Source of the DNA: Anaerolineae bacterium | Lineage (GTDB): Bacteria; Chloroflexota; Anaerolineae; S140-20 | Assembly: GCA_027021705.1 (NCBI GenBank) | Contig: JALUTT010000120.1 | Coordinates: 7,702-71,701 of the forward strand | Length of the DNA: 64,000 nt | Direction of reading: 5' to 3' | Shown: positions 8,578-62,840 of the stretch, piece after piece | Numbering within the stretch: the stretch's first letter is position 1 | Layout of the letters: each line of letters opens with the position of its first letter | Made by a program: the position numbers and the translations under genes | Notes under the pieces: generated by a model | Database searches by the model: none | What the model was told of the DNA's origin: nothing | Seen by the model: the letters and a program-made list of their open reading frames with translations, nothing else

Positions 8578-8616
8578 CGGAAACGCGCCTAACCTGCGGG
8601 AGGGTGAACAGTTACT
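8578..8616 (-). repeat. Truncated copy (left ~38 nt only) of the type-1 TIR miniature element
   Basis: The minus strand reads GTAACTGTTCACCCTCCCGCAGGTTAGGCGCGTTTCC and then diverges. No right TIR is present. Confidence 0.6.
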
Positions 8617-8650
8617 GCTTGTTCTCCCTTCGCTGGCCCGTTGGCTCTGA

Positions 8651-10231
8651 CTACAAGATGACAACGGCACCGCCCCGGCGAGGATCACCTGTTGCCTTGA
8701 TGGTGCCGTTCTGTCGGGACACGGCGTGGACGCCGCCGAAGTAGAGGCTGCGCTGACGCCAGCGGTTGACCTGGTAGCCCATCGCCTCCAGCTCGTCGGC
8801 GACCAGAGGGTTGTAGCCTCCTTCTAAATGGAGGGTGCCCTCTTCGAAGTGGACGCGCGGGGCGAGGACCGCTTGCTCCAGCGAGAGGGGGAAGTCCAGC
8901 AGGTTGTTGAGCACCTGCAGGATGGCTGTGCGCAGCCGGTTGCTCCCACCGCTGCCCAGAGCGAGGACAGGGCGGCCTCCTTCCAGGACGATGGTAGGGG
9001 CCATCATCGAGGCGAGCCGGATGCCGGGTGGATCCTGATGGAACCCTCGGGGGTGCAGATCGGCCTCTCCCATCAGGTTGTTCAGCGTCACGCCTGTCTC
9101 CCCGATGATGAAGCCGGCCGACTCCCCCGGCGTCGTGGTCAGGGAGACGATCAGTCCATCTCGGTCCGCCACGCTGATGTGGGTCGTGTTGGCCGGCCCA
9201 CCGCTCCTAGGAGCATCGGAACCCCGGCCCGGTCGGGCCAGCGCCTCGGTCAGGTCTGCACAGTAGGAGGCAACCACCGCGTCGTCGAGGAACGCCGTCA
9301 CCCGCTCTGTGCCTCCCAGCCGAGATAGCGCCTCCCATCGCTGTCGGGCTTGATTGGTCAACCGCATTACTTCGGCCAGGATGGTCAGGTGCCGGGTCGA
9401 GGCGTGGTCCACATCGCTCAGGTCCAGGCTTTCCAACAGTTTGAGGGAGAAGGCGATGAGGGCTCCACCGGTTGAGGGCGGCGGCGGCATTAGGATGGTG
9501 TGTCCTCGGTAATCGAGGCGGATGGGCGCGCAACGGTAGACCCGGTAGTAGGCCAGGTCTGCGGCCGTGATGAGCCCGCCGTGGGCCTCTTGGTCGGCGA
9601 CGATGGCCTGGCCGATGGGGCCGGTGTAGAAGAGGTCAGGTCCCTCCTGGGCCAGCCACTCCAGCGTCTCGGCCAAGCGGGGCATCCGTATCAGGTCCCC
9701 TTCGCTGGCGAAGCGACCGTTGATGGTGTAGCGCCGGGCCAGGGATGGGGTATAGGTGAAGATGGGTTCCAGGAGCTTCAGGATGAACGCTCTGGGCGGG
9801 GCGAGATGGAAGCCCTCCCGAGCCAGACGGATGGCCGGGGCCAGTACCTGGGAGAGGGGCATCGTGCCCTGCTCTTCCAACAGGGTGCAGAGGCCGGCGA
9901 CGTTGCCGGGCACGGCCGCTGAGGCCCGCCCCACGTGGAAGACCTGGGTCGCATCGCCGAAGTCCACCGTCACCGCCTGGAAGTCCAGGGGGCGGTCCTT
10001 CCCCCGACCCAGACCCGGCACATTGGCGAAGAAGTCATAGACCGTGGCTTCCCCCTGGGGCGTGCAGACCAAGGCGAAGCCACAGCCGCCGATGTTGGAG
10101 ATGTCTCCCTCGGCGATGAACGAGGCGAAGGCGGCCGCCACGGCCGCGTCCACAGCGTTTCCCCCCTGGGCCAGGAGTTCAGCACCGGCAGCGGCAGTTT
10201 CAGGACTTCCGGCTGCAATGGCTCCCCGCAT
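8651..10231 (-). CDS. ggt: Gamma-glutamyltranspeptidase family protein
   Basis: GGT family motifs: TTHISVADRDGLIVSLTTTPGESAGFIIGETGVTLNN, a GGSNRL-type region and GGVHAV. Start chosen at MRGAIAAG (10231, AGAGGA RBS). The track ORF extends to 10420. Confidence 0.8.
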   Translation of the reverse strand: MRGAIAAGSPETAAAGAELLAQGGNAVDAAVAAAFASFIAEGDISNIGGCGFALVCTPQGEATVYDFFANVPGLGRGKDRPLDFQAVTVDFGDATQVFHVGRASAAVPGNVAGLCTLLEEQGTMPLSQVLAPAIRLAREGFHLAPPRAFILKLLEPIFTYTPSLARRYTINGRFASEGDLIRMPRLAETLEWLAQEGPDLFYTGPIGQAIVADQEAHGGLITAADLAYYRVYRCAPIRLDYRGHTILMPPPPSTGGALIAFSLKLLESLDLSDVDHASTRHLTILAEVMRLTNQARQRWEALSRLGGTERVTAFLDDAVVASYCADLTEALARPGRGSDAPRSGGPANTTHISVADRDGLIVSLTTTPGESAGFIIGETGVTLNNLMGEADLHPRGFHQDPPGIRLASMMAPTIVLEGGRPVLALGSGGSNRLRTAILQVLNNLLDFPLSLEQAVLAPRVHFEEGTLHLEGGYNPLVADELEAMGYQVNRWRQRSLYFGGVHAVSRQNGTIKATGDPRRGGAVVIL

Positions 10232-62757: not shown

Positions 62758-62769
62758 GGCATAGAAGCC

Positions 62770-62840
62770 GTAACTGTTCACCCTCCCGCAGGTTAGGCGC
62801 GTTTCCGAGGCGAACCGGTGACCTGCGGGAGGGTAGACAG
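62770..62840 (+). repeat. Type-1 TIR miniature element with a ~45-nt internal deletion, directly after the alaS stop
   Basis: GTAACTGTTCACCCTCCCGCAGGTTAGGCGCGTTTCCGAGGCGAA|CCGGTGACCTGCGGGAGGGTAGACAG. Both TIRs are intact and the central core is missing. Confidence 0.7.

Follow-up and report, generated by a model that had tools for sequence, protein, structure and literature searches.

A family of small repeats was found in a 64,000-nucleotide stretch of DNA from an Anaerolineae bacterium (contig JALUTT010000120.1 of assembly GCA_027021705.1, positions 7,702 to 71,701), referred to here as the window. Six copies (type 1) have ends like those of insertion sequences (ISs) of the ISBst12 group, IS66 family, and inner arms that pair to form a hairpin; three relatives (type 2) have the arms in common with type 1 but not the IS-type ends. 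The favoured explanation, which is given a probability of roughly 60 %, is that type 1 is a miniature inverted-repeat transposable element (MITE) with IS66/ISBst12-type ends, the core of which is a hairpin of the repetitive extragenic palindrome (REP) or REP doublet forming hairpin (REPIN) type, belonging to a REP-associated tyrosine transposase (RAYT) of the Anaerolineae, and that type 2 is the same hairpin without the ends. The anatomy of the element could be read directly, as could its target duplications, its empty sites, the identity of its ends with those of ISBst12-type ISs, and the flanking of RAYT genes by the arm hairpins. What is new is the union, in a single element, of two kinds of miniature mobile DNA that were already known.

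All six type-1 copies were recovered by repeat finding and alignment where the original prediction had placed them, with several boundaries shifted by a few nucleotides; the four full copies, previously put at ~120–130 bp, are each exactly 122 bp. The perfect 15-bp terminal inverted repeats (TIRs) proposed at the time exist as an inverted repeat but not as termini. When the copies are aligned with their flanks, homology extends 11 nt (GTAACTGTTCA) past one arm and 16 nt (TAGGCTGAATAGATAC) past the other, making the inverted repeat sub-terminal, and it matches at 15 out of 15 positions only in the copy at 33350, and at 14 out of 15 in the others. End lengths are counted from the 13-nt core, CCCTCCCGCAGGT, and the long end read inwards is GTATCTATTCAGCCTA. 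Ends and arms together make an imperfect TIR of roughly 24–29 bp with a 5-nt bulge, and the arm pair, (A)CCCTCCCGCAGGT … ACCTGCGGGAGGG(T), 13–14 bp, closes a loop of 65–71 nt. The 15-mer CACCCTCCCGCAGGT, searched for with up to two mismatches, occurs 15 times in the window, compared with 0.63 occurrences expected, and none of 100 shuffles reached 15; the GC content of the window is 62–71 %, and its sequence and that of an ENA metagenome contig are identical. The type-1 units are small, noncoding, and multicopy, with six copies in 64 kb and at least 97 loci in other genomes.

The copy at 33350–33471 (+ strand), immediately 3′ of the oppB stop codon in the oppB/oppC gap, is flanked by a perfect 8-bp duplication, GGCCGGAG, at 33342–33349 and 33472–33479. 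Likewise, the copy at 28046–28167 (− strand), between an extracytoplasmic function (ECF) sigma factor gene and a zf-HC2 anti-sigma gene, has an 8-bp target duplication that is CGATGCTT on the + strand (28038–28045 and 28168–28175) and AAGCATCG on both sides in the orientation of the element. Upstream of alaS, the copy at 59774–59895 (+ strand) has the flanking 8-mers TGCCCTGG and TGCTCTGG, identical at seven of the eight positions. The fourth full copy, at 32115–32236 (+ strand) between oppA (SBP_bac_5) and oppB, is older, and its short end is decayed (ACCAACTTTCA).

Empty sites were found in a JGI contig (L296; loci from other genomes are designated L), in which OppB is 98 % identical to that of the window and the DNA is 93–95 % identical. 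This contig is without both of the opp copies, and it aligns straight through once 33350–33471 and one GGCCGGAG are removed from the window. The single GGCCGGAG at the L296 empty site is therefore direct evidence of insertion with target duplication. In L296, a DUF3786 gene comes directly after the opp operon, with clpB next to it, whereas in the window clpB is ~25 kb away, so a rearrangement separates the two lineages.

Other genomes were scanned with the pattern CCCTCCCGCAGGT-N55–85-ACCTGCGGGAGGG, exact arms being required. This identified at least 97 loci in at least 26 species-level metagenome-assembled genomes (MAGs), showing that the family is not confined to the window. The matches listed, to which the counts that follow refer, come from Anaerolineae, Anaerolineales, Thermoflexales, or unclassified Chloroflexota MAGs, and the arm pair is confined to Anaerolineae-class MAGs among them. 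Scoring of 102 evaluable copies for ends and flanking duplications found IS-type ends on both sides in 42 and on one side in a further 26, against a background in which 1.4 % of random 28-nt windows match the end motif. The 42 two-ended copies cluster at 120–124 bp and always have one short (11 nt) and one long (15–18 nt) end. Their flanking 8-mers are identical at 8/8 positions in 22 cases and at 7/8 in eight, whereas the next 8 nt outward of the same copies, taken as a control, never agree at more than 4/8, with one exception. At some modules (L045 232, L083 6276, and L096 3693), the flanks are direct repeats of 24–34 nt, not 8 bp, as if the module had inserted into a different repeated sequence or such a sequence had been duplicated.

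Elements of the IS66 family are reported to have 8-bp duplications and ends starting GTAA (PMC11946415), and in ISEc8, read directly from the Sakai chromosome, the ends are GTAAGCG… and the duplication is GATTACGC. For ISDge4 of Deinococcus geothermalis, a member of the ISBst12 group, the reported TIRs are GTGACTACTCAGCA / GTAACTGCTCAGCA, with an 8-bp duplication (PMC12898284); reading of plasmid pDGEO01 confirmed these ends, the duplication there being GCCCAATC. The ISBst12 group, with its single open reading frame (ORF), fits the ends of the element much better than the ISEc8 type of IS66. A metagenome scan built on an alignment of ISDge4-like transposases found 80 ISs of ~1.5 kb encoding such proteins. 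About 30 of the 80 have clearly paired ends, GTAACTGCTCAGGC, GTAACTACTCAGCC, GTAACTATTCACCC/GTAACTATTCACCCGGC, or GTAACTGTTCAGC, several of them between perfect 8-bp duplications, and there are exact matches of 16–20 nt between the ends of the element and the ends of these ISs. The hallmarks of the ISBst12/IS66 type, ends GTAA/GTNAC…TCAG and an 8-bp direct repeat, are present in the element. IS-type ends, 8-bp duplications, and empty sites together indicate that type 1 consists of MITEs and that a DDE transposase inserted them, bearing out the MITE-like behaviour that had been suggested for them. Literature searches found no described MITE for the ISBst12 group, nothing on MITEs or REPs in Anaerolineae, and no paper containing the arm sequence; no description of the element was found in the searchable literature.

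The arms behave differently from the remainder of the element. Among the type-1 copies in the window, 0 of 28 arm columns are variable, as against 21 of 94 elsewhere (Fisher p = 0.002), and the older copy at 32115, despite its decayed end, has 0/28 changes in the arms and 14/94 outside them. The rare arm variants are changed on both arms, with pairing kept. Interiors are entirely different between genomes, falling into 45 clusters with differing folds, and only their length of 65–71 nt is retained. Elsewhere the arm module is bounded by outer ends of at least five further kinds, and in type 2 in the window it has none. Other outer inverted repeats, for example GGTGYRTTTCA…, CCAATACCCGTGAA…, and TCACTACCCGACA…, frame it in L044/L050/L084, L013/L074, L008/L091, L056/L073/L085, and L011, and one class among them has flanking duplications of ~10–12 bp, which hints at mobilization by other transposase families. 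The arm was sought in the 80 metagenomic ISBst12-type IS loci and found in none (0/80), their repeats being only 13–17 bp. Furthermore, MITEs of 89–130 bp that are close to the element in length and have its ends, but not its arm, coexist in the same Anaerolineae and Thermoflexales MAGs, at L005 789–908, L022 2213–2301, L068 1888–2011, L077 4457–4581, and L091 22–151. Since ISBst12-type ISs and these MITEs lack the arm, which is also found where the outer ends are of another kind or missing, it is not an ISBst12 feature.

A different partner for the arm is suggested by the genes that it flanks. When E. coli RayT was used in tblastn, two loci matched among the at least 97 listed, L086 and L018. 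The first is a 1752-bp contig of an Anaerolineae MAG encoding a 192-aa protein, which matches Pfam Y1_Tnp at 40.6 bits (cutoff 23) and in which the HUH and YxxxNPV motifs line up with those of E. coli RayT. Upstream of this gene are two and a half tandem arm modules, and downstream a mini hairpin directly after the stop codon, followed by a full module and another mini hairpin; there are no IS ends on either side. The 90 % cluster of this protein has the IMG name ‘REP element-mobilizing transposase RayT’, and 12 further loci (L301–L312) were fetched for three other members of it. In all 12, a full module of ~95 nt ends 8–33 nt before the start codon, and 4–5 nt after the stop is a mini hairpin of ~32 nt, NCCTCCCGCAGGT-(6 nt)-ACCTGCGGGAGGN, of which only the left arm is present in L310, where the contig ends, and in L309, where the hairpin is partly deleted. 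The outermost pair of the mini hairpin varies, being C-G, T-A, or G-C. These genes are in at least three contexts, after an Eco57I/TaqI_C gene in L301–L309, which have Eco57I/TaqI_C, DUF7670, and Peptidase_M54 genes as a common neighbourhood, beside MacB/FtsX in L311, and beside HicAB in L086. The interiors of the modules flanking them are homologous to one another, and in two MAGs the RAYT gene and dispersed modules are both present. The arm hairpin, flanking the RAYT gene on both sides, is therefore of the kind expected of a REP/REPIN-type partner of that enzyme, and the REP/BIME-like alternative offered in the original prediction (BIME, bacterial interspersed mosaic element) also gains support from these related genomes. 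The second locus, L018, has a RAYT-like gene (1223–1789) whose protein is 41 % identical to that of L086, flanked by its own palindrome, AGACCTCNGAGGTCT (1184–1198, 1812–1844, and 3562–3594); there are five occurrences there and none in the window or any of the other loci examined. One RAYT with one palindrome of its own, in L086 and in L018, is the REP–RAYT pattern.

In the mechanism proposed, an ISBst12-group DDE transposase encoded elsewhere in the genome would cut at the 11-nt and 16-nt ends and insert the element between genes, where 8 bp of the target would be duplicated. A sequence-specific partner, RAYT or other, would recognize the arm; by analogy with E. coli TnpA-REP, RAYT may bind or cleave the arm hairpin. 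Recognition of this sort would explain why the arm is invariant across at least 26 species while the interior and the outside drift, and why arms are intact in old copies with decayed transposon ends. Copies transcribed within operons, as in oppA/oppB/oppC, may affect mRNA processing or stability, as REP or Correia elements do.

Several points weigh against this explanation. Neither cognate transposase is in the window, and the flanking of RAYT genes comes from related genomes. The earlier observation that the window has no transposase holds for the three kinds tested by tblastn (IS66 TnpC, ISBst12-type, and RAYT), the RAYT proteins having no match there. In tblastn with ISEc8 TnpA/B/C, the ISDge4 transposase, and 73 metagenomic ISBst12-type transposases, there was no match in the window, in the at least 97 Anaerolineae loci listed, or in the viral loci, and all-against-all megablast of the Anaerolineae loci listed found no IS-length repeats; no ISBst12-type IS with the ends of the element was found in the window, these loci, or relatives. 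Other searches yielded little. Against plasmids, ISEc8 TnpC matched enteric ISs only, plasmid pO157 had no IS66 element for use as a query, and the element itself had no blastn match in PLSDB. A scan of viral contigs with a 14-mer of the arm gave chance single hits and one copy of the element (L171). Two long contigs encoding relatives of the transposase of IS L220 (L294 and L295) have no arm motif, and their gene content is not suggestive of Anaerolineae. Also against the explanation, as to the RAYT, the sole NCBIfam match of the L086 protein, REP_Tyr_transpos, is at 79.5 bits, just below the curated cutoff of 80. The interiors of the window type-1 and type-2 copies are no more similar to those of the RAYT-flanking modules than to shuffled sequence, and since the interiors are not homologous, it is only the 13–14-nt arms and a common geometry that link the RAYT to the window. 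Neither arm is a palindrome in itself, and there is no canonical 5′ GTAG/CGTC tag, a departure from classical REPs. Invariance of the arm between species is in part a product of the genome scan, in which only exact arms could match. Finally, if only the DDE enzyme spreads type 1, it is not obvious how recognition by RAYT keeps the arms intact.

A fuller history can be put forward more tentatively, at somewhat short of even odds. The element would be a chimera acted on by two unrelated transposition systems, in which the REPIN-like hairpin of a vertically inherited RAYT acquired ISBst12-type ends early in the evolution of the Anaerolineae, and other ends in other lineages, and was then spread by the DDE transposase while the RAYT or a host protein kept the 14-bp arm invariant.

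Among the other explanations, the one that survives best, and is nevertheless unlikely, is that the element is a MITE and nothing else. The whole end of ~25–30 bp, arm included, would be recognized by one Anaerolineae sub-lineage of ISBst12-type transposase, and the arm hairpins beside the Y1 gene would be insertions or leftovers in which RAYT plays no part. In its favour, the element has target duplications and empty sites as well as ends of the IS type, and the IS-type terminus at the short end runs directly into the arm (…TTCA|CCC), which resembles IS L220 with GTAACTATTCACCCGGC; moreover, the cognate IS has not been found in the window, the loci listed, or relatives, so its repeats may differ from those of known ISs. 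However, the 80 ISBst12-type ISs have their 13–17-bp repeats without the arm, MITEs with the same ends do without it in the same MAGs, and the arm module can have outer ends of at least five further kinds, or no such ends at all. The modules flanking the Y1 gene have no IS-type ends, and their arrangement is the same in all of the contigs read for the cluster; in the copy at 32115 the arms have outlasted the decayed ends.

Less probable again is the converse, that RAYT moves all of the copies as REPINs, the IS-like ends and 8-bp repeats being a small palindromic target that was there beforehand, as has been suggested for REP dimers within longer palindromes. For the copy at 33350 this is contradicted by the L296 empty site, where a single GGCCGGAG is present but nothing like the IS ends; hairpin and ends therefore arrived as one unit, with duplication of the target. 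Nor were any 27-bp end-to-end ‘targets’ seen without the hairpin. Transposition by HUH/Y1 enzymes, judged by the biochemistry of IS200/IS605 and of RAYTs, is not known to duplicate targets, which also counts against it. In favour are the RAYT gene flanked by arm hairpins and the REP dimers embedded in longer palindromes in Anabaena variabilis and Halothiobacillus neapolitanus (PMC3733652).

That the copies are a multi-copy structured noncoding RNA gene, the third possibility raised in the original prediction, or a cis-regulatory RNA is scarcely credible, in spite of the strong predicted hairpin (−60.5 kcal/mol, z = −4.5) and the copies within operons, because Rfam has no match for them, neither strand is favoured, and the inner fold is not conserved. 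Rfam at gathering threshold found only a tRNA in the whole window, and at E ≤ 10 the best match to the element was unrelated eukaryotic families at E of about 1. Both strands fold about equally (−60 and −53 kcal/mol), orientation agrees with that of neighbouring genes in nine cases and is opposite in 11, and the interiors have no common fold, forming one to four hairpins. It is the sequence of the stem that is conserved, and not loops or junctions. Of the 81 evaluable copies among the matches listed, none is inside a gene, and target duplications and empty sites mark mobile DNA. A conserved three-way-junction RNA was considered and dropped, as the families fold differently. Likewise, a hidden Shine–Dalgarno sequence for oppC (GGGAGGG in the 3′ arm) was dropped because comparison with L296 places the real oppC start ~50 nt downstream, the ATG at 33468 being inside the end of the element. 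An apparent kinship to 16S helix 45, based on GGGGAACCTGCGG in type-2 copies only, was judged to be chance.

The explanation of the element as a MITE with a REP/REPIN-type core can be set beside known systems. With the REP/REPIN–RAYT systems (REP/BIME and RayT of E. coli, REPINs of Pseudomonas fluorescens) it shares extragenic palindromic units in high copy number, a pair of conserved inverted arms enclosing a spacer that evolves faster but keeps its length (~95 nt overall), a RAYT-family Y1/HUH gene in related genomes with the same hairpin on both sides and the same gene neighbourhood in several, a second RAYT with a distinct palindrome, and copies between the cistrons of ABC-transporter operons. 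It differs in that the stem spans two arms across a 65–71-nt loop (6 nt in the mini form), a single arm not being palindromic, whereas a classical REP is an imperfect palindrome of 20–40 nt with a GTAG/CGTC tag. No such 5′ tag abuts the stem of the element; in many copies there is a GTAG that overlaps the 3′ side (…GGGAGGGTAGG…), whereas in classical REPs the tag is on the other side. Most copies, among them every type-1 copy in the window, have DDE-type ends and 8-bp duplications, which RAYT-type transposition is not known to produce; transposition without target duplication, a REP/REPIN trait, is not seen in type 1, while the three type-2 copies show no duplication. The host also differs, being of the class Anaerolineae (Chloroflexota).

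With MITEs such as the Correia elements of Neisseria, ERIC, and MITEPsy1, the element shares a size of ~120 bp, lack of an ORF, imperfect TIRs, a target duplication of fixed length, internal-deletion derivatives, intergenic and intra-operon sites, a whole-element hairpin when transcribed, and presence/absence polymorphism between close relatives. Unlike these, its ends are of the ISBst12 group of the IS66 family and its most conserved part is an inner hairpin outside the repeats of the parent IS, tied to an HUH-type transposase. ISBst12-group ISs such as ISDge4 have the same terminal GT(A/G)ACT(G/A)CTCAGC and 8-bp target duplication, but are ~1.45–1.6 kb with a DDE transposase of ~450 aa, whereas the element is 122 bp, noncoding, and has the inner arm hairpin. 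REP units regularly framed by an outer palindrome have been described, as have ‘TIRtrons’ and tyrosine-transposase genes between repeats of which dispersed families also exist (Di Nocera et al., 2013; PMC3733652). The outer palindromes in those cases were not linked to a named IS family, duplications, or empty sites, whereas the frame of the element is IS66/ISBst12-type ends with 8-bp duplications.

The other copies in the window are partial or lack the IS-type ends. Two deletion derivatives of type 1 had been said to keep both TIRs. This is so for the one at 62770–62838 (+ strand, 69 bp), downstream of alaS, in which the two arms and the short end survive, whereas 42 nt of interior and the greater part of the long end are gone. 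The other, a 38-nt fragment at 8578–8615 (− strand) with clpB (5836–8484) and ggt (8651–10420) as neighbours, has one arm only, with the short end GTAACTGTTCA and 14 nt of interior, and is a 100 % match to 59774–59811. The three type-2 copies are recorded without strand. At 24827–24923 the same arms enclose an unrelated 67-nt interior, and neither ISBst12-type ends nor a target duplication was seen; ~70 nt from this copy is the tRNA gene (24674–24756, − strand) that is the sole Rfam match of the window. The copy at 29770–29864 is decayed, with arms TTCCTCTCGCA-GT and ACCTGCGGAAGGGG, and a short one at 51815–51880 has arms CCCTCCTGCAGGT / ACCTGCAGGAGG, changed on both sides with pairing retained. 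All copies in the window are intergenic (clpB/ggt, ECF sigma/anti-sigma, oppA/oppB/oppC, and both sides of alaS), and the density of the arm-bearing family is ~1 copy per 7 kb.

Other repeats are also present. Upstream of oppA, at 30220–30286, is an inverted repeat rich in ATTCGTG/CACGAAT heptamers; ATTCGTG-rich stretches adjoin arm modules in other Anaerolineae loci (flanks of L022, L030, and L083) and may be another repeat family. At 35099–35266, directly 5′ of an ORF starting at 35267, are ~12 head-to-tail 14-nt units (TGCACCTTGCGACC-like, made of two related 7-nt halves). An 87-bp tandem duplication (11698–11871) in the ORF at 10499–12103 and a 203-nt internal repeat (25745–26334) in a SpoIID/LysM ORF appear to be coding repeats.

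As a rule, a line is drawn between REPINs and their RAYTs on the one hand and MITEs and their DDE transposases on the other, as two classes of miniature mobile DNA that differ in mechanism and in evolutionary dynamics. The former are viewed as long-lived and vertically inherited, and MITEs as short-lived and dependent on ISs. Here, one abundant family has the hallmarks of both classes, in a poorly studied and largely uncultured class of bacteria. If this dual nature is true, REP–RAYT systems would be extended to the Anaerolineae, REP families having already been reported in the Chloroflexi species Thermomicrobium roseum, and the element would be the first MITE found for the ISBst12 group among the literature searched. 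The 13-mer arm pair, because it is confined to Anaerolineae-class MAGs among the matches listed, would be a practical marker for Anaerolineae contigs and would help to account for assembly breaks. Copies in the opp operon and between the sigma and anti-sigma genes would be candidates for effects on gene expression. The chimeric history, if true, would mean either that a REPIN has escaped dependence on its RAYT by way of MITE ends or that MITEs have recruited a REP core that the host tolerates. A 14-bp hairpin arm stays fixed across a bacterial class while riding on the ends of an unrelated DDE transposon, and the family, if its dual nature is true, would be a natural system for investigating how REP-type hairpins stay constant over deep time.

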